Of a stretch of 64,000 nucleotides of DNA, positions 4,464 to 62,398 are shown piece by piece. Position 1 is the first letter of the stretch; each line of letters opens with the position of its first letter. Source of the DNA: an uncultured Candidatus Saccharibacteria bacterium (lineage in GTDB: Bacteria; Patescibacteriota; Minisyncoccia; Phycocordibacterales; UBA5272); the NCBI GenBank assembly GCA_964457775.1, contig CAYWEW010000003.1, positions 30,776-94,775 on the forward strand, in the 5' to 3' direction. The translations under genes and the position numbers were made by a program. The notes beneath the pieces were generated by a model. The model was not told the DNA's origin. It saw only the letters and a program-made list of their open reading frames with translations, and made no database searches.

Positions 4464-6041
4464 CTAAAGAACTTTGTTTGCGTGATCCGCAAGGCGTGAA
4501 CGTTCACCTTTTAGCAATGTTATATGACCACTATGTCTCCAATCTTTAAAACGATCAACGAGGTGTGCTAGGCCTGAAGACCCTTCAGTGATGTAAGGGG
4601 TATCAATTTGCGCGAGGTTACCCAGACAAACAATTTTTGTTCCTGGTCCGGCACGAGTAATAAGTGCCTTCATTAACTTCGGTGTAAGATTCTGAGCCTC
4701 GTCAATAATTAGAAACTTATTGAGAAAAGTTCTTCCGCGCATAAAGCCCATAGACTTTATTTTTATACGACTGCGCACTAGGTCCATTGTTGCTGCCTTA
4801 CCCCAGTCACCGCCGTATTTAACCCCGTCACCTTTTTCTGTGCATTGGTTACCACTATTAAGTACATCAAGATTATCTTCAAGCGCACCCATCCACGGAG
4901 TCATTTTTTCTTCCTCTGTTCCAGGAAGAAAACCAATTTCTTCTCCAAGTGGAACTGTTACGCGGGTAATAATTATTTCTGAATAACGTTTTGTTTCAAG
5001 AGTTTTAGTGAGTGCAGCAGCAAGTGCTAGTAATGTTTTTCCAGTACCTGCTTGGCCAAGAAGGGTAACAATGTCAACGTCTTCGTCGAGTAAAAGATTG
5101 AGTGCAAAGTTTTGTTCACGGTTACGAGCAACTATTCCCCACACTGCACTTTTTTGATGAGTGTAGTCATTTGCTGTTCGTAGTGTGACAAAGCGAGGCT
5201 CCTTCTTTATAACTTGCGCTTCGAATTTTTCCCCACCAACTGAATAAACAAATTCATTAGGTTGTAGGGATTGAATTAAATGACCAGATACTTCGTATAT
5301 AGAATTTTTCCCTTCTTTTTTTACTTCAGGACTTTTGGGTTGATTGTTCCAGAAATCATCAGGAAGTTCTTGCATGCCTTGATACAGCATATCAGCATCT
5401 TCTATTACCAGGTCATTGCGATAATCCTCGACCTCTATTCTTAGCATTCGTGCCTTGATACGCATAATGGTATCTTTGGAAACAAGAACAACTTTGTACC
5501 TGCCTTTGTACTTCGTGACTAAATGGCTTACAACAGCAAGAATTCTGTCGTCACCATTCTTAGCAGTGTCTTCCGCAGGTACATCTTCAGTTTGTAGAAA
5601 CAAAGAGCCTGTAGCAATGCCACCAGAAGCTTCAAATAATGGTATGCCATCGTAGATATTAATTGTCGAATCAGTGGAAAGAATTTCCTCTAACGTTCGA
5701 GATATTTGACGAGAATTTCTATTTTTTTCTTCATGACCTTTTTTGTTGTCATCAAGCTCCCGAACTGTTTGCATTGGGAAATAAACATGATGTTCTTGGA
5801 ATCTGTATACACAAGTTGGGTCATGCATAGGTACGTTGGTATCAAGTACATACATGCACAACTCAGTAGGCACATTAAGAACTTTTTGCTTTCTTTGTGT
5901 TTTTTGCACGAAGGGTATTTGGGGCTTTTTACTGCTACCAAAATTTTTGGCAGCAATATCAGTTTGTTTGCTAAGCTGTGCCCTCCTACCACTCCTTGCA
6001 CCACCCACAGAACTGATTGGTTTACCTTTTGGACTTGCCAT
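4464..6041 (-). CDS. PhoH-like ATPase with N-terminal PIN domain (YlaK-like)
   Basis: PIN signature LVLDTNVPMHD; Walker A GQAGTGKT; PhoH box IDEAQNLTP...GNLAQIDTPYI; SD AAGGGAG upstream. Confidence 0.85.
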   Translation of the reverse strand: MASPKGKPISSVGGARSGRRAQLSKQTDIAAKNFGSSKKPQIPFVQKTQRKQKVLNVPTELCMYVLDTNVPMHDPTCVYRFQEHHVYFPMQTVRELDDNKKGHEEKNRNSRQISRTLEEILSTDSTINIYDGIPLFEASGGIATGSLFLQTEDVPAEDTAKNGDDRILAVVSHLVTKYKGRYKVVLVSKDTIMRIKARMLRIEVEDYRNDLVIEDADMLYQGMQELPDDFWNNQPKSPEVKKEGKNSIYEVSGHLIQSLQPNEFVYSVGGEKFEAQVIKKEPRFVTLRTANDYTHQKSAVWGIVARNREQNFALNLLLDEDVDIVTLLGQAGTGKTLLALAAALTKTLETKRYSEIIITRVTVPLGEEIGFLPGTEEEKMTPWMGALEDNLDVLNSGNQCTEKGDGVKYGGDWGKAATMDLVRSRIKIKSMGFMRGRTFLNKFLIIDEAQNLTPKLMKALITRAGPGTKIVCLGNLAQIDTPYITEGSSGLAHLVDRFKDWRHSGHITLLKGERSRLADHANKVL

Positions 6042-6194
6042 GATTCTTACTCCCTTGTGGTTAATTGAAAAAGAACAAATTACCTAGCGTATACTATGCC
6101 TTTTTAAGGATTATGCAAGTTTTGTTGTGAGTACATTAGAAGTAATTAAAAAGTGCGATATAATTAATATATGTTATTGGAATAATATAATTAT

Positions 6195-11482: not shown

Positions 11483-11493
11483 GTGTTAGAATA
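11483..11493 (+). promoter_or_regulatory. extended -10 box TGTGTTAGAAT, 5 nt before the mreB ATG (leaderless mRNA)
   Basis: The same 11-mer recurs before ychF (28906) and dnaJ (47501). Confidence 0.5.
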
Positions 11494-11498
11494 CTTCC

Positions 11499-12548
11499 AT
11501 GTTTGAGCGATTTTATCGACAATTTTCTAATGATATTGGTATCGATTTGGGTACTGCAAATACTCTCGTATATCTTCGAGGGAGAGGTATTGTAATTAAT
11601 GAACCATCCGTGGTTGCTATTAATACCAAAACTGACCGAGTGGTTGCTGTTGGTTTGGAAGCAAAGAATATGATGGGTCGCACACCTTCACATATTCGTA
11701 TTGTTCGCCCGCTTGTTGATGGGGTTATTTCTGATTATGAAGTTACAGAGGAAATGCTTTCGTATTTGATTAATAAAGCTAACGACACAGTTAAGAAACT
11801 TCTACGCCCTCGTGTTGTTATCGGTATACCAGTTGGTATTACTAATGTTGAAATGCGTGCAGTGTATGATGCAGCGAAATCAGCAGGTGCTCGTGAAGTG
11901 TACATTGTTGAAGAACCAATGGCTGCTGCAATCGGTGTTCATATGCCAGTGCATGAACCAGTTGGTAGTATGATGATAGACATAGGGGGTGGAACAACTG
12001 ATATCGCTGTGATTGCACTTTCGGGAGTTGTGCGGGCAAAAAGTATAAAAATCGCCGGAGATGTTTTAACTGAAAATATTATTGCTTATATGAGAGATGA
12101 GTTCAAAATGTTAGTTGGTGAAAAAACAGCTGAGCATATAAAAGTAAGTATTGGTTCAGCTTTACCAGATGAGAATGGTGAAGAGTTAAGTGTAAAGGGT
12201 CGTGATTTAGTAACTGGTCTTCCTCGTGAAGCGATTATTACTGACGTAGATATTCGTGAAGCAATGTACAGTTCCATTTCGCAATTGGTTGATGCTATAC
12301 GTGAAGTTTTGGAAACAACGCCACCAGAAGTACTCGCAGATATTATGCATAAGGGAATGACATTGTCCGGTGGCGGAGCTCTGATTAAAAATCTTCCACA
12401 ATTATTGGAGATGCAATTAAAAGTCCCAGTAACTGTTGCAGACGATCCGCTTACTGCGGTTGCTCGTGGTTGTGGAATTATTTTAGAAGACGTTACTCTT
12501 TATAAGGATGTATTAATACAAGACACTAATGACATATCTTTCAGGTAA
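11499..12548 (+). CDS. mreB: rod shape-determining protein MreB
   Basis: DIGIDLGTANT and actin-fold phosphate motifs throughout. Confidence 0.95.
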   Translation: MFERFYRQFSNDIGIDLGTANTLVYLRGRGIVINEPSVVAINTKTDRVVAVGLEAKNMMGRTPSHIRIVRPLVDGVISDYEVTEEMLSYLINKANDTVKKLLRPRVVIGIPVGITNVEMRAVYDAAKSAGAREVYIVEEPMAAAIGVHMPVHEPVGSMMIDIGGGTTDIAVIALSGVVRAKSIKIAGDVLTENIIAYMRDEFKMLVGEKTAEHIKVSIGSALPDENGEELSVKGRDLVTGLPREAIITDVDIREAMYSSISQLVDAIREVLETTPPEVLADIMHKGMTLSGGGALIKNLPQLLEMQLKVPVTVADDPLTAVARGCGIILEDVTLYKDVLIQDTNDISFR

Positions 12549-19538: not shown

Positions 19539-19625
19539 TTTTATTGTTTACTTTTATATTAAACAATAGTAGTATTTATTCTCGAACATTCAAATAATCA
19601 TGTTTGGATGAATTGTGGAGGATAT

Positions 19626-19955
19626 ATGGGACTATATTCAGTTGTGATTATTTCACATGACGAGCTCGACCATATTGAATCTGATTCAAATTTCGGCAAA
19701 AACCTTTCAAGAGCAATTAAAGGTCGGCGTATTTCGGATAAGCGGACCACAATAGTTCCTGCTGGTGGGTGTGGTAAATCTGCAGAAGTAGTTGGAAAGT
19801 GTTTTCAAGGAAGTGATGCTCAAATAGTCGTTATAGAGGGTGGAACTGGATGGATTGCAAACGGAGATGAAAAGCCAAGTTGGTCATCTCTTACATGGAA
19901 GATGGTAAAAGAAGTTTTTTCAGGAATTATTCCCAAAAGAAACAAAAAAAATTAA
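19626..19955 (+). CDS. hypothetical protein (SD-bearing; ORF-track start 19608)
   Basis: GGAGGA SD 6 nt before ATG 19626; no motifs. Confidence 0.45.
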   Translation: MGLYSVVIISHDELDHIESDSNFGKNLSRAIKGRRISDKRTTIVPAGGCGKSAEVVGKCFQGSDAQIVVIEGGTGWIANGDEKPSWSSLTWKMVKEVFSGIIPKRNKKN

Positions 19956-25917: not shown

Positions 25918-26241
25918 CTAGAGTTCCTTTCTGAAATGTAGGTAATTCTCAAGGGGGTGTTCCCGAGCAAACTTTGCATCCAGGTTGTGGCGGATTCTCA
26001 CTGAAGCGACACCATGGCAAATCACATACACCACCCCGACCCATAGCCATTTGATTCCAAAAAAAAGGAACAGCCCGAGTGTAGTAAAAATTCCAAAGAC
26101 AATTAGAATCAGAGCTTGGTAGCGAAAAAAGAAACTGTTTTTGGGAATGAATTCCCGATAAAGATTGTGAGCCCGCATGTTCTCACTAAACCTTAAAGCG
26201 GAATCCTGAGTTTCATAGTTCTTTGTAGTTTCTACACTCAT
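25918..26241 (-). CDS. small 2-TM membrane protein divergent from lexA
   Basis: 107-aa ORF with two hydrophobic helices; palindrome cgacaagttgtcg 37 nt upstream. Confidence 0.5.
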   Translation of the reverse strand: MSVETTKNYETQDSALRFSENMRAHNLYREFIPKNSFFFRYQALILIVFGIFTTLGLFLFFGIKWLWVGVVYVICHGVASVRIRHNLDAKFAREHPLENYLHFRKEL

Positions 26242-26402
26242 TACTTTACTCCTCTAATATTTATTAGGAACATTATTCGACAAGTTGTCGATTTATCTTA
26301 AATTATCATATTTAGAGTAAAAGTCAAATAGCTTATACATTATATGGTTAAATCAAACAAAATTACAAGAAATGAATCTTATCCACAGTTGTTCTATTGT
26401 AC

Positions 26403-32517: not shown

Positions 32518-33804
32518 ATGAAGAACCTACCTCAACAACTAAAGGGCATAGCAATAGGAACCATTTTCTTTATTGGTCTATTATATGTAAGTGCATGGAC
32601 TGGAGCTCCAACAGGAACACCACCAGCAAACAACGTAGATGCCCCTGTAAATGTTAGTATTAACTCGCAATATAAAGATGGAGCATTAGGTGTTGGAGGT
32701 TTGATTCGTGGTTATGCAGACGCAATATTTGATGGAGGTGTAAAAATAGGAACAACAACAGACGTTTGTAGTTCAGCATTAGGTGGAACATTGCGCTATA
32801 ACAGCAGTGCTAGATGTGTAGAATTTTGTGATGAGTCATCATGGAAATGTACAAATCAGACAGCTACACCACCAACATGTACTTCGTTTACTTATTCCAG
32901 CTGGTCCCCGTCAGTTTGTGTTAATGGTACACAAACAAGAACTGTAACAACTTCATTACCATCTGGCTGTGTTGGAGGAACGTCATCAACAAGTCAAAGC
33001 TGTACCGTCCCAGATTTTTCTTATACTGCAACTATTTCTGACACACCAAATTATAATTTAAGAGATGTTGTTTTGGCTGCTGGATGGGATGGATCTAAAA
33101 AAGTGGTTGCAACTATTACTATAAACGGTGACGTATATTCAACTTCAAATGCTATTCCTGCCTTCGATACTGGAGATCTACCTGCAGGTTCAAGTGTTAC
33201 AATTATAAATAATGGTAATATTATCGGTAAGGGTGGTAATGGTGGAGTAGGGTATGGATCAAGTTTATGGGCAGGCTTTGGATACGCCTATACAGTTGGT
33301 ACCCCAGGTGAAGATGGTGGTCCAGCACTAAAAGTAAGAGCTATTACAGTTATTAGGAATTATGGTGTTATAGCAGGAGGAGGAGGAGGTGGTGGTGGTG
33401 GTGGATACGCATATAATAATTATTATTATCAGAACTATGGTAGTGCTGGTGGCGGTGGAGGTGGTGGTGGACAGGGATACAACGCAGGTAGTGCTGGTGG
33501 TGGTGGTATTTTAAGTGGATACAGTTCAGCGAGTGGTAATTCTGGTAGCTCTGGAACATTTAGTTCTGCTGGATTGGGTGCTACAGCTGTAAATTCTTCT
33601 AATTCACAAGGAGACGGTGCAGCTGTATATGGAAGTGCTGGAGGAAATGGTGGAACACTTGGCAATCCAGGACAAGTAGGAGGTAGTGGATCTGCTCAGT
33701 ATGCTAGTGGTGGATATCCTGGAGGACTGGCAGGGAATTCAGTTATAGGTAATTCATATGTATCTTGGGAAGTTGTTGGAACTAGATTGGGTCCTGTTAA
33801 TTAA
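32518..33804 (+). CDS. N-terminally anchored Gly-rich extracellular protein (cassette A, paralog of 41344..42315)
   Basis: Hydrophobic anchor then AWTGAPTGTPPANNVDAPVNV...IGTTT, Cys-rich middle, (G)n/GGxGG C-terminus. Confidence 0.6.
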   Translation: MKNLPQQLKGIAIGTIFFIGLLYVSAWTGAPTGTPPANNVDAPVNVSINSQYKDGALGVGGLIRGYADAIFDGGVKIGTTTDVCSSALGGTLRYNSSARCVEFCDESSWKCTNQTATPPTCTSFTYSSWSPSVCVNGTQTRTVTTSLPSGCVGGTSSTSQSCTVPDFSYTATISDTPNYNLRDVVLAAGWDGSKKVVATITINGDVYSTSNAIPAFDTGDLPAGSSVTIINNGNIIGKGGNGGVGYGSSLWAGFGYAYTVGTPGEDGGPALKVRAITVIRNYGVIAGGGGGGGGGGYAYNNYYYQNYGSAGGGGGGGGQGYNAGSAGGGGILSGYSSASGNSGSSGTFSSAGLGATAVNSSNSQGDGAAVYGSAGGNGGTLGNPGQVGGSGSAQYASGGYPGGLAGNSVIGNSYVSWEVVGTRLGPVN

Positions 33805-40837: not shown

Positions 40838-41245
40838 ATGGCTACAGAAACAAAACAGAGATACATAGAAGCAGTAGGACGTCGTAAGACAGCGATTGCT
40901 CGTGTTCGTATTACACCTGCAACAAAGACTTCTTTCGTTGTTAACGATAAGGATGTTAAGGAATATTTCGTAACAGAAGAACTTCAAATGATTGCTCAAG
41001 AAGCGATTAGTAAATCAGAAGTTGGTGAAAAGTTCTCAGTATCTATTCACGTATTAGGTGGTGGTATTCATGCACAAGCAGAAGCTGTACGTCATGGACT
41101 ATCTCGTACGCTCGTTCTTCGTGATGAAAACATCAAGAACACTCTTAAGAAACTTGGATTTCTAAAGCGTGACTCACGTCAAGTTGAAAGAAAGAAATTC
41201 GGTCTTAAGAAAGCACGTAAAGCTCCAACTTGGTCAAAGCGTTAA
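40838..41245 (+). CDS. rpsI: 30S ribosomal protein S9
   Basis: C-terminal ...GLKKARKAPTWSKR. Confidence 0.9.
   Translation: MATETKQRYIEAVGRRKTAIARVRITPATKTSFVVNDKDVKEYFVTEELQMIAQEAISKSEVGEKFSVSIHVLGGGIHAQAEAVRHGLSRTLVLRDENIKNTLKKLGFLKRDSRQVERKKFGLKKARKAPTWSKR
41219..41245 (+). repeat. direct repeat copy 1 (rpsI last 9 codons incl. stop)
   Basis: aaagctccaacttggtcaaagcgttaa; 26/27 identical to 42965-42991. Confidence 0.8.
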
Positions 41246-41252
41246 TAATAAT

Positions 41253-41281
41253 AAACTGCACATATGTGCAGTTTATTTTTT
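41253..41281 (+). terminator. rpsI intrinsic terminator (ctgcacat/atgtgcag palindrome + T-run)
   Basis: Perfect 8-bp palindromic stem followed by tttattttt. Confidence 0.65.
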
Positions 41282-41343: not shown

Positions 41344-42315
41344 ATGAACAGTGGATCAACAATAAATACAAGAACTCAAGATTCTTTCACTAAGGCATCT
41401 TTGATAATGATATTATCTATAATACTTGGTACTGTAACTTATGCATGGGTAGGTCCAACAAGTATGGCTCCTAACGGAAATGTACCTCCACCGATTAATG
41501 TTGGTTCAGTTCTGCAAGAAAAGTTGGGAGGACTTAAAATATTTGGTGACTTAACTGTTGGAACGACAACTAGTCCAAATGCAACTTTAACTGTCCATGG
41601 GAAAATATATTCTGAATCTACATTAAGTTCTGATACTGCACATACAGTTGTCACTAAGGATTTTATCCCAAGGTGTTCTTCAGGTAAGTTCTTAACAAGT
41701 GATGGGAATCAGCTGTTGTGCAAAACAGCCACAGTTCCTCCTTCCTGCGGAACAGAGTCAAATGTTGGTCCAAACACAGTTGTTACGTTTACATCTTCAT
41801 GTGTGTTCGTTGTTCCTGACGGAGTTAATTCTGTTAATTTGAAAGTGGTTGGAGGTGGAGGTGGAGGTGGAGGAGGGTCTGATTTTGGTGGTGCTAGTAG
41901 TGGGGGACAGAGTGGAACACAGTCATCGTTCTCAACAGTTGTAGCTTTACCTGGTGGTGGTGGAGGTGGAGCAGGGATGCTTCAATATAATTACGTGTGT
42001 TATGGAGGCGCAGCAGGTGCTGGATACCCTTCTGGAACAGAAGGGGTAACTTGTGGATATGGATCGGTTACTGGCGCTTCCAATGGTTCTGGATACGGTT
42101 CAGGTGGGGATGGTAAAACCTCTGCTATTGATGGTGGTGGAGGAGGAGGTAGTGGTGGTGCTGGACAAGTTGTTACACAGACATTAAGTGTCACTTCAGG
42201 TCAAAACATATCTGTTGTAGTTGGGGGTGGAGGATCACGAGGATCTAGTACATATGGTAATGTTGGTACTTCTGGTACAAACGGTGTTGTTACTGCTACT
42301 TATACTACACCATAA
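41344..42315 (+). CDS. N-terminally anchored Gly-rich extracellular protein (cassette B)
   Basis: AWVGPTSMAPNGNVPPPINV...VGTTT N-terminus parallels cassette A; poly-Gly blocks; start at ATG 41344 (ORF-track 41230 overlaps rpsI). Confidence 0.6.
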   Translation: MNSGSTINTRTQDSFTKASLIMILSIILGTVTYAWVGPTSMAPNGNVPPPINVGSVLQEKLGGLKIFGDLTVGTTTSPNATLTVHGKIYSESTLSSDTAHTVVTKDFIPRCSSGKFLTSDGNQLLCKTATVPPSCGTESNVGPNTVVTFTSSCVFVVPDGVNSVNLKVVGGGGGGGGGSDFGGASSGGQSGTQSSFSTVVALPGGGGGGAGMLQYNYVCYGGAAGAGYPSGTEGVTCGYGSVTGASNGSGYGSGGDGKTSAIDGGGGGGSGGAGQVVTQTLSVTSGQNISVVVGGGGSRGSSTYGNVGTSGTNGVVTATYTTP

Positions 42316-42349: not shown

Positions 42350-42934
42350 ATGAGTCCGAATTTAAAAAATATTATTATATATATTCTCATCTTAATTATA
42401 GGAGTTTTTATTGGTGGTTACTCAGTGAATTTATATTTCAAGACCAAAATTCAGAAAATATTTATGAGTAATGTTACTTCTAGCGAATCAGTAAATAATG
42501 ATGTATTTGATAACAATGCTCAAGCATCTAACTCAAAAATTTTAAAAACAAAGTATTTTGTTGGAGATGTTGTTTCTTTTTCTGGTGATACAATTATTAT
42601 AGACTCTGAAAATATATTGTATCCGTTGTCCGTTTCTAAAGAAAAGCACCAAGTAACCGTCAAAATAGATAATAATACAAAATTTATTAGTACCACCTTA
42701 AAAGATAAGGCAATTTTTGAAAAGGAAATGCGTGATTATAAAAATATTCCAATTGACAAAAGAGCGCAGATTACATCACCAAAATCTTTAATTGAAAAAG
42801 AAATACCTCGTAATTCAATTAGTGTTGGTAAAAAAATAGTCATTAAATCAAAAGAAGAGTTAGTTTCTACTACTAAATATTTTGTAGCTGAATCGATTAG
42901 TTTAACTTATGAATTGTCTAAAGCCACAAATTAA
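42350..42934 (+). CDS. membrane-anchored beta-rich partner protein (cassette B)
   Basis: Paralog of 33841..34437; start at ATG 42350 (MSPNLKN...). Confidence 0.55.
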   Translation: MSPNLKNIIIYILILIIGVFIGGYSVNLYFKTKIQKIFMSNVTSSESVNNDVFDNNAQASNSKILKTKYFVGDVVSFSGDTIIIDSENILYPLSVSKEKHQVTVKIDNNTKFISTTLKDKAIFEKEMRDYKNIPIDKRAQITSPKSLIEKEIPRNSISVGKKIVIKSKEELVSTTKYFVAESISLTYELSKATN

Positions 42935-42964
42935 ATACCGGGGACTCTTTTAAGGAAACCTCTT

Positions 42965-42991
42965 AAAGCTCCAACCTGGTCAAAGCGTTAA
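42965..42991 (+). repeat. direct repeat copy 2 (rpsI 3' end duplicate)
   Basis: aaagctccaacctggtcaaagcgttaa followed by its own hairpin terminator. Confidence 0.8.
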
Positions 42992-42995
42992 AAAC

Positions 42996-43022
42996 AAAAA
43001 CCTGTCATTTGACAGGTTTTTT
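42996..43022. terminator. intrinsic terminator (cctgtca-ttt-tgacagg flanked by A5/T6)
   Basis: Hairpin with flanking A/T runs on both strands. Confidence 0.6.
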
Positions 43023-43506: not shown

Positions 43507-43581
43507 TTTTGTAATTTTAAATTAGCCGTGTTAGTGTAGTTTTAGAGGTTTCAATTAGTTGTCTAATTTGTGGAGGAAAAA

Positions 43582-43836
43582 ATGAATACACGTGAAATAA
43601 TTGTAAATCTTGATGAAGACTCAGTAAAGAGAATCGGAATACTTTTTGGAGATGATGTTACGACAATGGAGGGTGCTGAAGATTTTTTTAAACTAGCGAT
43701 GGTAACCCTTTTATCAATGGGTGAAGAGATGAAAAAGGGGAGAATAATTGTTTCTATGAACCCAAACGCGGTTGGTGGTTTTACAGGATTGAAATTTGAT
43801 TTCCCAAAGCCAAAACCAATATGCAGAGTCAAATAG
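43582..43836 (+). CDS. hypothetical small protein (84 aa), SD-bearing
   Basis: GGAGGA SD 43572-43577, 4 nt before ATG. Confidence 0.45.
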   Translation: MNTREIIVNLDEDSVKRIGILFGDDVTTMEGAEDFFKLAMVTLLSMGEEMKKGRIIVSMNPNAVGGFTGLKFDFPKPKPICRVK

Positions 43837-43846
43837 ATTTTAAATC

Positions 43847-43878
43847 AAACAGCACTTAGGTGCTGTTTTTGTTTTTTT
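43847..43878 (+). terminator. intrinsic terminator (acagcac-ttag-gtgctgt + T-run)
   Basis: Hairpin followed by a T-run. Confidence 0.6.
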
Positions 43879-43939
43879 ACTTAATTATGCTAGTGTTCTT
43901 GTAGAAATACTGCACATTCATATTTAAAGGAGAAACAAA

Positions 43940-44743
43940 GTGCTTGGATATCTTCTTGAAAAAAGACCACAAGAAATTTATAGACTTGAGTTAAATGAAA
44001 ATGGTTTTGTTTTTAAAATTCGAAATGCATTTTTTGAGTACTTACTCAATTGTATTAAAAAAGAGGAAGACAAAATTCATTTAATAAAACTTGCAAATGA
44101 TGTAGTTGAAGGCGTAGTCATTTTCTACATAAATTTGCCATTTATCAGATATCCAAATTTTTCACACAAATCAACAGATTGGAAGAGTTTGTGCAAATGT
44201 GCAGAAGATATGAGTTTTCTATTTCGTCTGCTTAATTATCCACCAACAGACTTGGATTTGGTAGGTAATCACTCATACTGTTTAAGTGAAAAGACACAGC
44301 TCATGACTATTTCTACTAGTCATTATAGTAATGACGGTTTTCACTCTTCTCCGATTGAAGTTGGGTTTAGTAGAAAGGCTTGTGAACTTCTTGTTACTTC
44401 ATTTAAACAGGATACACACTTTAAAGAATGTGAGGAGTCTGCGCATAGTGTGTACTTTGGTTTATCCTCCAAAACAAAAAGTGAATTTGAGAGAAGTAAA
44501 AAGACTTTCCTAAAATATTCCGGAGGATTCATGGGGATAACTGCCATGGTAAGAGGCGGAGGCACTCCACACTTCGTTGTTCCAGGAAACTGTGCTTGTT
44601 TGGGTGCAAATCCAGATAGGTTCAAGTTTGATAGGGATACGCATTCTCACAACATGGATTCTTCATTACAACAGATGAGTATGCTCGCATCTTTGGTTAC
44701 GTTCTGGAATAAGGTTCTAATTCCATTACAGGACGGAAGCTAA
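43940..44743 (+). CDS. hypothetical Cys/His-rich protein (267 aa), SD-bearing, GTG start
   Basis: AAGGAGAAACAAA then GTG; no recognised family. Confidence 0.5.
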   Translation: MLGYLLEKRPQEIYRLELNENGFVFKIRNAFFEYLLNCIKKEEDKIHLIKLANDVVEGVVIFYINLPFIRYPNFSHKSTDWKSLCKCAEDMSFLFRLLNYPPTDLDLVGNHSYCLSEKTQLMTISTSHYSNDGFHSSPIEVGFSRKACELLVTSFKQDTHFKECEESAHSVYFGLSSKTKSEFERSKKTFLKYSGGFMGITAMVRGGGTPHFVVPGNCACLGANPDRFKFDRDTHSHNMDSSLQQMSMLASLVTFWNKVLIPLQDGS

Positions 44744-47500: not shown

Positions 47501-47511
47501 TGTGTTAGAAT
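47501..47511 (+). promoter_or_regulatory. extended -10 TGTGTTAGAAT, 9 nt before the dnaJ ATG
   Basis: Recurrent 11-mer; implies an internal dnaJ promoter with a leaderless or near-leaderless mRNA. Confidence 0.45.
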
Positions 47512-47520
47512 ATTCTTATC

Positions 47521-48606
47521 ATGGCAACAAAAGACTATTACAATCTACTTGGTGTAGATAAGAGTGCTTCGAAAGACGATATTAAAAAAGCGTTTTATAA
47601 ACTTGCTGCAAAATATCACCCTGATAAAAAAGGAGGGGATGAGGCGAAATTCAAAGAAATAAACGAAGCGTATCAGACACTTTCTGATGAGAAAAAAAGA
47701 AAGGAGTATGATACTTACGGACAAACATTCAATGGACAAGGCCCGATGGGTGGTCAAGGAGGATTCGGTGGTTTCGGAGGATTCAATCAATCAGATTTTC
47801 AAGACATGCAATTTGATTTTGGGGACCTTGGAGATATATTTGGAGACATGTTCGGAGGGGGCGGAGGTTCTCGCCAAAAACGTGGACGAGATATTTCACT
47901 TGAAATTGATGTACCATTTACAGAGGCAATTTTTGGAACAGAGAGAAATGTTTTGCTTTCAAAAGTAAGTACTTGTAAAACATGTACTGGAAGCGGTGCA
48001 AAAGTTGGAACTAAAAAGAAAATTTGTACCACATGTAATGGTCAAGGAAAAGTTCACGATGTGAAGAAGACATTCATGGGTAATTTCCAGACAGTTCGTA
48101 CATGTGATAGTTGTCGTGGAGTAGGGCAGATTCCAGAAGAGAAGTGTCATGATTGTAAAGGTCATGGTGTGTCGAATGTTCGTGAAGAAGTTAATATCGC
48201 TATTCCAGCTGGAATGGGTAATGGTGAAATGATACGTATGTCACAAATGGGTGAAGCAGTGTCAGGTGGAGTATCAGGGGACTTATATGTAAAGATAAAT
48301 GTTACACCTCACAAGATTTGGAAGCGCGAAGGAAACGACTTAGTTATCACTCATGAGATTAAATTGACAGATGCGCTTTTGGGTGTAAAACATACAATTG
48401 ACGGATTAGATGGAAAAGTCGAAATAGATGTCCCAGCAGGAGCTCAGACAGGCGAAATTTTGCGTGTAAAAGGCCGTGGAGTGCCCCATATTCACGATAA
48501 AGGGCGTCGTGGGGATATATTAGTAAAACTAAATATTCACATGCCTAAGAAGCTTTCTAGGAAGGCTATGGAGCTTGTCGAAGGTCTACAAAACGAAGGG
48601 TTGTAG
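47521..48606 (+). CDS. dnaJ: chaperone DnaJ
   Basis: J-domain HPD, G/F region, four CxxCxGxG zinc-finger repeats. Confidence 0.95.
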
Positions 48607-48751
48607 GTGGGAATAAATGAAGTAGCATTAATACAAAAAGGATATGCGTGAAGCATATCTTTTTTTGTATTATTTTTCATCTATTGTTGACCTTGTATAA
48701 ATAAAGGTCTAGAATATTAAAGTTGCGTTCTTTTCTAAAAAGGGGGGTGTC

Positions 48752-49426
48752 ATGATTGATAAAGGGGTTCAAAAGGCGAGTGTATTTATTCAGCAAATGA
48801 ATGCCTTATTTGGTAGAACCAGAATTGGTGGCATAGTTAACGAATATGTAGATTTTTTTGACTTACTGCTTTCAAAAAGTAGTCATGATGTTAACAAACT
48901 TCTTCGACAATATTTGGTCAGAACATTGGCATCAAGTAGGTACATTAGAAGTATTAATTCTGGTGAACTATATGTTGTTTTTTATGATGGGGGAAGTTAT
49001 TGTTTGCGTGGGGACGAACTTCTTAATCCTGATATAAAAATACCATCATATAGCGAAATATTCTCAGAGCATATATGGTATCAAAAAACGGGATATAGAC
49101 CAAAAATTGCAGAGGGTTACAAAACAGTTGATGACCTCATAGAGGCGAGAATTACATCTGCTTTGAAGATGATTAATTTTCTAAGAGATACTCTGGAAAG
49201 TGGGGTATCACCATGGGACTATGTTCATCTCTCTACTGATGGGCAAAAAATAAAGGAGGAATTAATTTGTCTTGTGGGGGGAATGATTAATCAAACAGAG
49301 GCAGATATTAAAATAATTGAAGAAAATGAAGGTCCAGCTTTTTTGCTTGATGATTACAGAAAAGACTTAAGAAGAAACAAAATAATCAGTAGATGTTTAA
49401 CTAAAACGGTTATTCCAAAAAATTGA
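48752..49426 (+). CDS. hypothetical protein (224 aa), SD-bearing
   Basis: AAAAGGGGGG SD before ATG. Confidence 0.5.
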   Translation: MIDKGVQKASVFIQQMNALFGRTRIGGIVNEYVDFFDLLLSKSSHDVNKLLRQYLVRTLASSRYIRSINSGELYVVFYDGGSYCLRGDELLNPDIKIPSYSEIFSEHIWYQKTGYRPKIAEGYKTVDDLIEARITSALKMINFLRDTLESGVSPWDYVHLSTDGQKIKEELICLVGGMINQTEADIKIIEENEGPAFLLDDYRKDLRRNKIISRCLTKTVIPKN

Positions 49427-50961: not shown

Positions 50962-51045
50962 TAATCGTAAAATTAAATATTGATATAAGTATTGTTTTGT
51001 GTTAGTTTTATTTAGGTTGTTACTTACATAGATAAGGAGAAACAA

Positions 51046-51552
51046 ATGGAAATACGCACATATGAAAATGTTCAAAAACTTCCAGGCGATTATACTTCTG
51101 AACTTTCTGAGGTTTTTATAACCAGTGAAAGTTTGATGGCAGAGGAACAGGATTCCGAATTACGCGATTTCTTGCTTGCTCTTTTGGAAATTAATTTGCG
51201 TCTAACTGCTCACGTTTTTCTTGATAGAAGACAAAGTTCACTTGGAGGAAGTAAGATTCGCATTGTGATTACTACTACTCCTACACTGAAAGGTATAATT
51301 TGGGGTATAGGTTATGATCCCTCACCTGAAGGTGGTCAATATGTTGAGTCAATACATGTGGATGTTGATATTTCAAAAGTAGGTGATGATTTTAAGGAAG
51401 AATATAAACTTCAGAAAAAAGATTTTGAAGGATGGAAAAAATTCTTCCTTAATATTTTTGAGATGATGCGTGAAGAGAGTAAATCTCGCATAAAAAGATC
51501 AGAAGAACTTCTGATATGCTTAACACCAATTCAAACTGAAACCACCCAGTAA
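51046..51552 (+). CDS. hypothetical protein (168 aa), SD-bearing
   Basis: AAGGAGAAACAAATG (same 13-mer as before 43940); hairpin terminator 51541-51572 follows. Confidence 0.5.
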   Translation: MEIRTYENVQKLPGDYTSELSEVFITSESLMAEEQDSELRDFLLALLEINLRLTAHVFLDRRQSSLGGSKIRIVITTTPTLKGIIWGIGYDPSPEGGQYVESIHVDVDISKVGDDFKEEYKLQKKDFEGWKKFFLNIFEMMREESKSRIKRSEELLICLTPIQTETTQ

Positions 51553-51599
51553 CACTGGGTGGTTTTCTTATTTTATACTTATTTGTTACACTGTATAAC

Positions 51600-52580
51600 A
51601 TGTCAAAGAAAATCTTAGTTTCTGGAATCAAACCAACAGGGAGACTTCATTTTGGGAATTACTTTGGTGCAATGAAGCAGAATATTGACCTATCAAATTC
51701 TGGAGAATATGAGAGTTATGTTTTTATTGCTGATTATCACGCTCTCACAACTGTCCGAAATGGTGATGAGTTGCGACAGCAGACTATAGAAGCCGTTGCT
51801 TCATACATTGCTTGTGGACTGGATGTTTCAAAAGTTGTTTTGTTCAAGCAGTCATCTGTTCCTCAAGTTACTGAACTAACTTGGATTTTTAATAACCTCG
51901 TAACTATACCGTACATGATGAGAGCTCATGCATTCAAGGATAGAGAGGCAAAAAACGAAGAAGTTAATTTAGGTCTTTTTGATTATCCAGTACTTATGGC
52001 TTCTGACATTTTAATTTACGGTGCTGATATTGTTCCAGTAGGGGCTGATCAAAAGCAACATGTAGAATATGCTCGTGATATCGCTGGATATTATAATCGT
52101 GCGTATAATGTTGAAGAATTTAAATTACCGAAAGATTTGATAATTGAAAATGTTGCCTCACTCCCTGGTGTAGATGGCCAAAAGATGAGTAAGGGGTATA
52201 ACAATCACATTGAACTATTTTGTTCTGATGAAGATTTAAAAAAACGAGTGATGAGTATTGTCACTGATAGTGCGAGTCCAGAAGACAAGAAGAATCCAGA
52301 TGAAAATAATATTTATAAAATTCATAAACTTTTCTTGAATGAAGAAGAGGATAAAAATTTGCGTGAAAAGTTTGAAAATGGTGGATATGGATACAAGCAA
52401 GCAAAGGATGATTTGCTTGTTACTATTATGAAGTGGAGAGAGGGAAAGAAAGAGAAGTACGATGAACTACTATCGGACACATCTTTTATACTTAATCTCT
52501 TAAAAGAAAATGGTGAATCTGCGAGAATTAAAGCAGAAGAAAAAATGATTATAGTTCGTAAGCAGATTGGATTGGAATAA
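51600..52580 (+). CDS. trpS: tryptophanyl-tRNA synthetase
   Basis: HIGH-region TGRLHFGNY, KMSKG. Confidence 0.92.
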   Translation: MSKKILVSGIKPTGRLHFGNYFGAMKQNIDLSNSGEYESYVFIADYHALTTVRNGDELRQQTIEAVASYIACGLDVSKVVLFKQSSVPQVTELTWIFNNLVTIPYMMRAHAFKDREAKNEEVNLGLFDYPVLMASDILIYGADIVPVGADQKQHVEYARDIAGYYNRAYNVEEFKLPKDLIIENVASLPGVDGQKMSKGYNNHIELFCSDEDLKKRVMSIVTDSASPEDKKNPDENNIYKIHKLFLNEEEDKNLREKFENGGYGYKQAKDDLLVTIMKWREGKKEKYDELLSDTSFILNLLKENGESARIKAEEKMIIVRKQIGLE

Positions 52581-61895: not shown

Positions 61896-62147
61896 TCAAC
61901 CTGGACCAATTTCATTTTCTTTACTGTTATGAAGTATGAACATTCGTGCGCCGTACAAAATTCCTGTGCAGGCAAGAATGCTTAGTCCAGAAAGCACAAC
62001 AGCCATAGACAACATATCAAAACTCATCCGTGGCGTTATCCATTCGCGATTGAAGCCGAAAATAAGCGAAATTGGAAGTGATGCAAATCCAATGAAAATC
62101 ATGAAAGCTGCGACAGCAATCAAAAACATTTCAAAGCGATTAAACAT
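61896..62147 (-). CDS. small 2-3 TM membrane protein
   Basis: Hydrophobic 83-aa ORF, only minus-strand gene in the last 30 kb. Confidence 0.4.
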   Translation of the reverse strand: MFNRFEMFLIAVAAFMIFIGFASLPISLIFGFNREWITPRMSFDMLSMAVVLSGLSILACTGILYGARMFILHNSKENEIGPG

Positions 62148-62398
62148 AAGAGTTTCTCCTTAAAATTTAATGAGCAGGCAACTCTTCTATTATCACATAT
62201 TTATAGCACAATGTCAATAGTGATAAAAGTCTTGAACATATAGAATATTAATTAGAATGTAGTATGTTGCCATTTTGGACATATCTAAATATTATTAATT
62301 TTAAACATAATATATGATATTTATATTTAAATATACTTATCAATAATTTTCTAATTGCTAATGGCAACAAGCTGTTCACGATGATATACTATGTAAAT

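Follow-up and report, generated by a model that had tools for sequence, protein, structure and literature searches.

Some Bacteroidota are reportedly poor in Shine–Dalgarno (SD) sequences and keep them on only a few genes, as in the rpsU/bS21 autoregulation of Flavobacterium johnsoniae, observations that are attributed to Baez (2019), Jha (2021) and McNutt (2023). The mRNAs of Bacteroidota have leaders with a non-SD motif, and the few genes that keep an SD are conserved targets of regulation. SD-poor genomes form group B of the GeneMarkS-2 classification, and group C, represented by Actinobacteria and Deinococcus-Thermus, combines leaderless with SD-led initiation (PMC6028130). Bacteria of the Candidate Phyla Radiation (CPR) are uncultured, their ribosomes are pared down and their translation initiation is almost unknown; among them, the ribosomal protein bS21 is often absent in Parcubacteria (Tsurumaki 2022, PMC9297842). 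Here we describe a 64,000-nucleotide stretch of the CPR contig CAYWEW010000003.1 (the window), and within it the 13-mer AAGGAGAAACAAA, which lies at 43927-43939 immediately 5' of a GTG codon at 43940. A second exact copy lies at 51034-51046, its last letter being the first of ATG 51046. In our view 43927-43942 is probably a genuine SD with its GTG start, in a genome that appears to divide into leaderless core genes and SD-led accessory genes.

Contig-level results refer to 79.5 kb and 85 genes (the window plus an extension), with public gene calls and Pfam matches; rpsU lies outside the 79.5 kb examined. The comparative set consists of 80 related loci and the window's extended contig (81 sequences, ~1.4 Mb). 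When species-representative genomes were scanned with GrpE, all those returned were Patescibacteria/Paceibacteria metagenome-assembled genomes (MAGs), labelled Nomurabacteria, Taylorbacteria or Paceibacterota, and 13 of these, with GrpE identities of 62-81%, are the close relatives referred to below.

The start site at 43940 and its protein family

The 13-mer lies within a compact series of signals, all on the same strand:

43847-43878, + strand: intrinsic terminator from the terminator scan, with a 9-bp stem and a T-run, ending the upstream 84-aa gene
43888-43896, + strand: predicted extended -10 promoter, TGCTAGTGT, with a putative transcription start near 43903
43903-43939, + strand: predicted 5' untranslated region (UTR) of ~36 nt, AT-rich and unstructured, minimum free energy -5.8 kcal/mol (z = +0.95 against shuffles)
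43927-43939, + strand: the reported 13-mer, comprising the SD core AAGGAGA (43927-43933) and the A-rich spacer AACAAA
43940-44743, + strand: coding sequence (CDS) of 267 aa with a GTG start, belonging to a conserved, Paceibacteria-restricted family

The terminator that precedes it would make the 43940 gene a separate transcription unit, and in L009, L094 and L095 the orthologue is likewise preceded by an equivalent hairpin with a T-run. We scored an SD as strong when its duplex with CACCUCCUUU reached a dG of -8 kcal/mol or lower; the focal SD reaches -8.8 kcal/mol, with a gap of 7 nt between GGAG and GTG. Orthologues carry predicted promoter elements of the same form and at the same distance (TGCTAGATT, TGGTAGTGT, TGATAGTGT and TGGTAGGAT), the remaining upstream DNA being unalignable. 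A structured regulatory leader (riboswitch or RNA thermometer) was considered and rejected, since four UTRs fold like their shuffles (z from -0.36 to +0.95). Nothing in the focal UTR points to a riboswitch or thermosensor, the UTRs of orthologues show no sequence conservation, and scans of the window for tRNAs and Rfam families returned neither.

The family to which the 43940 product belongs comprises 27 full-length clusters at 36-62% identity, and a profile search extended it to 174 representative clusters. Its members share the invariant motif VPGNCACLG.NP..F...SH, together with a conserved N terminus, MLGY.L, whose first residue, in an alignment of 26 sequences, coincides with the start that the SD defines and thereby fixes the 43940 start codon. 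The AlphaFold2 model of the focal product is of high quality (predicted local distance difference test 90.6, predicted template modelling score 0.91) and found no Foldseek match in the PDB; no Pfam domain was found even in distant members, nor any PHROG family. The proteins may have a fold, or form an enzyme family, that has not been described before.

DNA was available for another seven members of the family (L009, L091, L093, L094, L095, L179 and L180), at identities of 39-49%. All eight, the focal gene included, carry a strong SD at canonical spacing, and most have the extended -10 element at the same distance. In six genomes, that of the window among them, the family gene occupies the interval between rpsI and grpE, whose flanking core proteins are 72-92% identical, and every genomic context of the family is CPR-like. 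In the relative L179, the family member adjoins an integrase. An earlier, sequence-only reading of the window had proposed that SDs mark recently acquired or differently regulated genes. For the focal gene the first half of this proposal does not hold: the same interval in six genomes and an SD retained across 39-49% identity indicate that the gene is old, vertically maintained and fast-evolving rather than a recent import, with its SD apparently under purifying selection.

Initiation signals of core and accessory genes

Strong SDs precede 12 of the 85 genes on the contig, compared with 3.0% of random positions (binomial p = 9e-6) and 5.1% of internal in-frame ATGs (p = 1e-3). Every SD listed by the sequence-only reading was recovered by coordinate at canonical spacing, only that before 19626 being ambiguous (the public start is at 19608). 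To this list we add six SDs, of which three are in the window, before the minus-strand starts at 1103, 26241 and 62147, while the others lie a short way left of it. Over 36 sites from the window genome and its relatives, the spacer between GGAG and the start is 5-9 nt long, with a median of 6. The clade SD consensus is (A/T)AAGGAG(G/A), and its most frequent form is AAGGAGAA followed by an A-rich spacer.

The genes behind these SDs form a distinct class, as had been proposed from the letters alone. Eleven of the 12 have no Pfam match, compared with 23 of the 73 others (Fisher p = 1e-4), which corresponds to SD rates of 11/34 among Pfam-less and 1/51 among Pfam-bearing genes. The codon-usage and GC3 (GC content at third codon positions) comparison suggested by the same reading gives a median GC3 of 0.293 for SD genes against 0.227 (p = 3e-5) and a codon score of 0.12 against 0.31. 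The GC3 of SD genes also exceeds that of SD-less hypotheticals (p = 0.002), which are core-like in composition, and the compositional difference is weaker across the relatives. Eight of the 12 SD genes lie on the minority strand (p = 9e-5), giving an SD rate there of 8/16 against 4/69 on the other strand. This enrichment holds clade-wide, with an odds ratio (OR) of 5.3, but is gone within low-conservation genes (p = 0.18), so the strand bias is secondary to gene class. Searches of Pfam, PHROG and structures gave no function for the SD genes, the products of which include five small multi-pass membrane proteins, one zinc ribbon and one PIN-PhoH protein as well as soluble orphans; mobility genes were sought near those in the window and none were found.

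Across the clade, open reading frames (ORFs) were taken from our own caller, which sets the start at the first ATG and makes no use of SD information. The association with conservation is steep. Of genes found in no other locus, 11.0% are SD-led, as against 0.5% of genes common to at least 30 loci, and a GGAG/GAGG SD precedes 46 of 473 genes present in at most two other loci but only 5 of 979 present in at least 10 (OR 21, p = 3e-18). The motif forms a sharp peak at -11 to -8 in the former group and is essentially absent there in the latter. Where the intergenic distance is at least 60 nt, SDs are found in 12.7% of poorly conserved and 0.8% of conserved genes (p = 1.6e-11), and conserved same-strand genes with intergenic distances below 30 nt have an SD in 2 of 352 cases. 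Within the close clade, the counts are 21/104 poorly conserved and 0/206 conserved genes (p = 2.5e-11). In these loci the core is thus SD-less beyond the window as well as inside it, and core SD motifs are depleted below background.

On the contig, core starts fall in a duplex dG range of -3.2 to +2.9 and are therefore SD-less. This applies to mreB, lysS, dnaK/J, grpE, infA, rpsM/K/D/I and rplQ/M and equally to rpoA, trpS, aspS, gltX, mraY, ftsW and murG. Several core starts instead abut a predicted promoter:

11484-11501, + strand: leaderless-type start of mreB, with TGTTAGAAT, 6 nt and ATG
47503-47523, + strand: leaderless-type start of dnaJ, same pattern with a 9-nt spacer
51584-51602, + strand: leaderless-type start of trpS, same pattern with a 7-nt spacer

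Among the non-SD genes of the clade, the frequency of the -10 hexamer is highest where 6 nt separate it from the start (10% compared with a background of ~1%), and a -10 box near the start is present in 18-54% of genes across gene classes, compared with 1.6-2.5% in controls. Core genes that have no adjacent -10 box lie at AT-rich, operon-internal junctions. In SD genes, the hexamer is located 17-60 nt upstream, with one exception at a 6-nt spacer, and most of those other than the focal gene have a TGnTAnnnT or TAGAAT element, a predicted promoter, 30-50 nt upstream. These predicted promoters belong to the extended -10 type and did not show up in a classic -35/-10 scan. A predicted promoter of their own at this distance and a 5'UTR, set against the apparently leaderless core, fit the second half of the earlier proposal, that SDs mark differently regulated genes.

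The hexamers TAGTGT, TGTAGT and TAGTTT are enriched at -75 to -18 of SD genes (OWN and L005-L084), for example at 43529-43545 and 43888-43896, with OR 6-8 and p = 5e-5 to 1e-3 from 52 genes and many hexamers tested; the -10 forms of leaderless genes are TATAAT, TATACT and TAGAAT. SD-gene promoters may constitute a separate promoter class or reflect a different sigma preference.

Other SD-led genes, their intervals and the shared 13-mer

The window has a GC content of ~35%, and its + strand carries nearly all genes. These include mreBC-PBP2, greA, lysS, mraZ-rsmH-ftsI, a lexA-like gene, ychF and alaS; infA-rpmJ-rpsM-rpsK-rpsD-rpoA-rplQ-rplM-rpsI, grpE-dnaK-dnaJ, trpS and aspS; and scpAB, mraY-ftsW-murG and gltX, in addition to many small Pfam-less genes. 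The remaining SD-led genes of the window are as follows:

1-1116, - strand: 369-aa repeat-containing orphan, ATG 1103, SD AAGGAG at 1111-1116; the gene continues past the window's left end
1558-1809, - strand: zinc-ribbon-like 79-aa gene, ATG 1797, SD AAGGAGTG at 1802-1809
4464-6056, - strand: PIN-PhoH gene, ATG 6041, SD AAGGGAG at 6050-6056; the sole Pfam-annotated SD gene
19617-19955, + strand: ambiguous site, GGAGGA at 19617-19622, 3-4 nt before ATG 19626; public ORF start at 19608
25918-26254, - strand: 107-aa membrane orphan, ATG 26241, SD GAGGAG at 26249-26254; divergent from the leaderless lexA-like gene
43529-43836, + strand: predicted promoter TGTTAGTGT at 43529-43537, SD GGAGGA at 43572-43577, ATG 43582, 84-aa orphan CDS
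48710-49426, + strand: predicted -10 TAGAAT at 48710-48715, G-rich SD AAAGGGGGGTG at 48739-48749, ATG 48752, 224-aa orphan CDS
51000-51552, + strand: predicted promoter TGTTAGTTT at 51000-51008, SD AAGGAGA at 51034-51040, ATG 51046, 168-aa CDS
61896-62161, - strand: 83-aa membrane orphan, ATG 62147, SD AAGGAG at 62156-62161

The two exact copies of the 13-mer had been taken to point to a common source or a duplicated expression module. An identical pair is expected only ~0.003 times under an independent-column model of 34 SD sites, and matches to the 13-mer with at most one mismatch number four, where 0.30 are expected. Nevertheless, a duplicated module was rejected: the genes at 43940 and 51046 encode unrelated proteins, and their upstream flanks show no significant similarity (local alignment score 15 against 11.7 +/- 1.9 for shuffled sequences, p = 0.08). 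Since three sites in the genome, that before 62147 together with both 13-mer sites, share the 10-mer AAGGAGAAAC, and since AAGGAGAA dominates the clade, we read the identity as probable convergence on a local optimum, although common descent of the short element is possible.

A true duplicated module does occur to the left of the window. It is a bidirectional intergenic region of ~90 nt that contains promoter and SD, is present in two copies with ~90% identity between them, and maps to L088 2640-2770 and 4284-4406 (approximately -5040 to -4910 and -3395 to -3275 in window coordinates). On the + strand it has a predicted leaderless promoter followed by the first codons MKNN, and on the minus strand the predicted promoter TGTTAATGT and an SD. 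Downstream of the two copies, the minus-strand genes that they would drive, of 146 and 195 aa, are unrelated, and one copy heads a 43-aa ORF that mimics the N terminus of a UvrD-like helicase.

Family depth differs among these genes. The 51046 family has three homologues at ~57% identity, and the orthologue in L095 lies in the same place, immediately 5' of trpS, with SD AGGAGTG and promoter TGTTAGCTT. IMG/VR viral contigs yielded no relatives of the 43940 and 51046 families, the two tested, and a phage origin of either is thus unsupported by this search. The 84-aa gene at 43582 has no homologue in the related loci, and the 48752 protein none in the databases. However, the closest relative, L005, has a gene at the position of 48752 (dnaJ-X-SSF) that is 25% identical over its full length between flanks of 92-93% identity and that keeps the SD GGGGGG. 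Orphan status is therefore partly a matter of extreme divergence, which tells against recent acquisition as the general reason for missing homologues.

Four of the listed genes call for comment on their annotation or composition. No homologues are available for fixing the N terminus of the 19626 ORF. The membrane orphan at 26241 is atypical in composition, with a GC3 of 0.46 and a negative codon score. At 61896-62163, ORFs overlap on both strands, and the one in the public annotation is the + strand ORF of 75 aa (61936-62163), which has no start signal; this is probably a strand mis-call, the 83-aa minus-strand ORF having a strong SD. The PIN-PhoH gene (4464-6041, minus strand) is, at 40.6% GC, among the most GC-rich of the window, and its best matches in JGI metagenomes (56-63% identity) come from contigs of 50-70% GC and from non-CPR organisms only, a pattern that would reflect either strong cross-phylum conservation or a foreign origin of the gene.

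In the relatives, the rpsI-grpE and dnaK-dnaJ intervals are hot spots of small SD-led genes, the contents of which vary by genome and which each have their own predicted promoter and often their own terminator (L180 3240-6684; L095 3069-4500 and 6994-8772). L180 has four consecutive SD-led genes between rpsI and grpE, and three minority-strand hypotheticals of L095 are SD-led. In the window, a 50-nt direct repeat (41209-41258 and 42955-43004, 84% identical, 1746 nt apart) duplicates the rpsI 3' end and stop, and its second copy is followed by a terminator hairpin. The 1.75 kb between the repeats holds two hypotheticals, the Gly-rich 41344-42315 and 42350-42934, both absent from L005, and the segment has the appearance of a cassette whose insertion at the 3' end of rpsI duplicated the target. 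Long GGxGG repeats characterise the Gly-rich proteins 41344-42315 and 32518-33804, one of which matches Pfam GP38, and tandem GGTGGAGGT-type DNA repeats occupy 41842-42237; the two proteins may be surface or pilus-associated.

Alternative explanations and known systems

We propose the following mechanism as the most probable. Housekeeping mRNAs would be leaderless or nearly so, with the -10 box 6-9 nt before the ATG, or would be translated from AT-rich operon junctions. A minority of genes would have leaders of 25-50 nt and recruit the small subunit through pairing of the SD with the anti-SD of the 16S tail. The 43940 unit would be one of these, running from the upstream terminator through the predicted extended -10, the unstructured ~36-nt 5'UTR and the SD to the start and the 267-aa CDS. 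Such genes are lineage-specific, fast-evolving, compositionally atypical, often on the minority strand and situated in variable intervals between core genes, and each could be regarded as a self-contained expression cassette. A possible reason for the division is that an SD would function whatever the exact transcription start, while leaderless initiation would demand precise spacing between promoter and ATG.

Several points weigh against this proposal. The clade statistics depend on a simple ORF caller, which agrees with the public calls on 76 stops and 70 starts out of 85. Conservation was scored only up to a distance of 10 kb from grpE on each side; a core gene that lies outside this range in other genomes was counted as non-conserved, which makes the conservation test conservative. 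Deep sampling applies to the 43940 family, the other SD genes having 0-3 homologues. Universal 16S motifs were sought in 94 loci (the window and the relatives' loci) and none were found. The CCTCCT anti-SD was detected in only 48% of Parcubacteria and found mostly missing where uL1 is absent (Tsurumaki 2022, PMC9297842), and the clade of the window may be among the uL1-lacking group.

This last point leads to the possibility that the 16S of the clade has no anti-SD, the purine-rich element being read otherwise or being unrelated to translation. The motif's reported absence from about half of Parcubacteria (Tsurumaki 2022, PMC9297842) and the depletion of core SDs below background would be in keeping with this. 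We nonetheless judge it very improbable, since the consensus exactly complements CCUCCUU, the spacing is canonical at 5-9 nt and the conservation among orthologues is simplest under a canonical anti-SD. Truncated 3' ends of 16S genes in MAGs can also make such motifs appear missing. A broader variant, in which the two classes are separable and independently tunable translation channels, at the extreme with a 16S that has no anti-SD and with SDs read by a variant rRNA or a protein factor, we consider unlikely, though less so. A co-regulated SD class, with a promoter form of its own and SD-dependent, 30S-type initiation, and switched apart from leaderless translation by the levels of free 30S subunits and initiation factor 3 or by anti-SD availability, is more likely than either of these, but still less likely than not. 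The near-complete division between core and accessory genes and the TAGTGT, TGTAGT and TAGTTT forms upstream of SD genes, against TATAAT, TATACT and TAGAAT in leaderless ones, are consistent with it, as is the shift of the leaderless/SD-led balance with stress in Mycobacterium (PMC8485053, PMC3898074). Against this, the k-mer enrichment stems from 52 genes and many hexamers, no UTR structure is conserved and the products are varied, from membrane proteins and a zinc ribbon to PIN-PhoH and soluble orphans.

It could also be argued that horizontal transfer has recently brought in the SD genes from donors that use SDs (hosts, phages or other bacteria), in which case the SD would be a relic with no selected role. 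Their atypical GC3 and codon scores, their lack of Pfam or PHROG families, their patchy presence among the 13 close relatives, their position in variable intervals, of which one also holds the 1.75-kb cassette with the duplicated rpsI 3' end, and the L179 member beside an integrase all speak for such an origin. Yet the focal family occupies one interval in six genomes and retains its SD and predicted promoter at identities of 39-49%, and the gene that L005 has in place of 48752 is SD-bearing at 25% identity. The two families tested have no relatives in IMG/VR, the surroundings of the SD genes in the window are free of mobility genes and the contexts of the focal family are CPR-like, so that we regard acquisition as distinctly unlikely. 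Chance or annotation artefact, given that callers favour SD-like starts and that AT-rich genomes yield spurious ORFs, is largely refuted and merits next to no weight. The codon score is zero or below in two SD ORFs (26241 and one at window position -6843), and 19626 and 62147 conflict with public gene calls; but the enrichment far exceeds both controls, the motif position is sharply peaked, the N terminus conserved in 26 sequences begins at the SD-defined start and the clade-wide starts were chosen without SD information.

Taken together, consensus, spacing and orthologue conservation suggest that the clade still reads its SDs; conserved SDs imply that something does, which bears on the anti-SD lack reported for many Parcubacteria. 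The division would provide a marker, obtainable from sequence alone, of a rapidly evolving accessory genome that may include host-interaction genes. It also matters for gene calling in such MAGs, in which SD-trained callers would mis-set core starts and leaderless models would miss SD genes. Initiation mode as a separator of housekeeping and accessory expression becomes testable, and the finding would gain in interest with an anti-SD shown to be missing or with the two classes shown to be regulated separately.

Mixed leaderless and SD-led initiation is already known, and our literature searches found no account of CPR bacteria as predominantly leaderless or as having SDs divided between core and accessory genes, so it is the partition seen in these sequences that appears new. 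As in group C (PMC6028130), a Pribnow box lies 6-8 nt from first-in-operon starts and a second gene population has canonical SDs. In that group, however, the SD serves operon-internal and many core genes, whereas here it is found on 0 of 206 conserved close-clade genes, operon-internal ribosomal-protein, dnaK and mur/fts genes are SD-free and the SD is confined to lineage-specific genes with their own promoter. The locus shares with Bacteroidota a genome-wide avoidance of SDs and rare SD exceptions that are possibly read differently by the ribosome; unlike in Bacteroidota, core starts here abut promoters and the exceptions are orphans. The Parcubacteria reported to lack the anti-SD (PMC9297842) share their superphylum with the present clade, and its SD-less core is as expected if the anti-SD were lost or out of use, but here SDs are conserved on a subset of genes, and PMC9297842 covers no mRNA start contexts. 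A further comparison is with Mycobacterium tuberculosis, in which initiation mode also tracks gene class and may permit a global shift in translation (PMC3898074, PMC8485053). The arrangement described there is the reverse of that proposed here: accessory and toxin-antitoxin genes are mostly leaderless in M. tuberculosis, while in the present clade it is the core that appears leaderless and the accessory genes that are SD-led.

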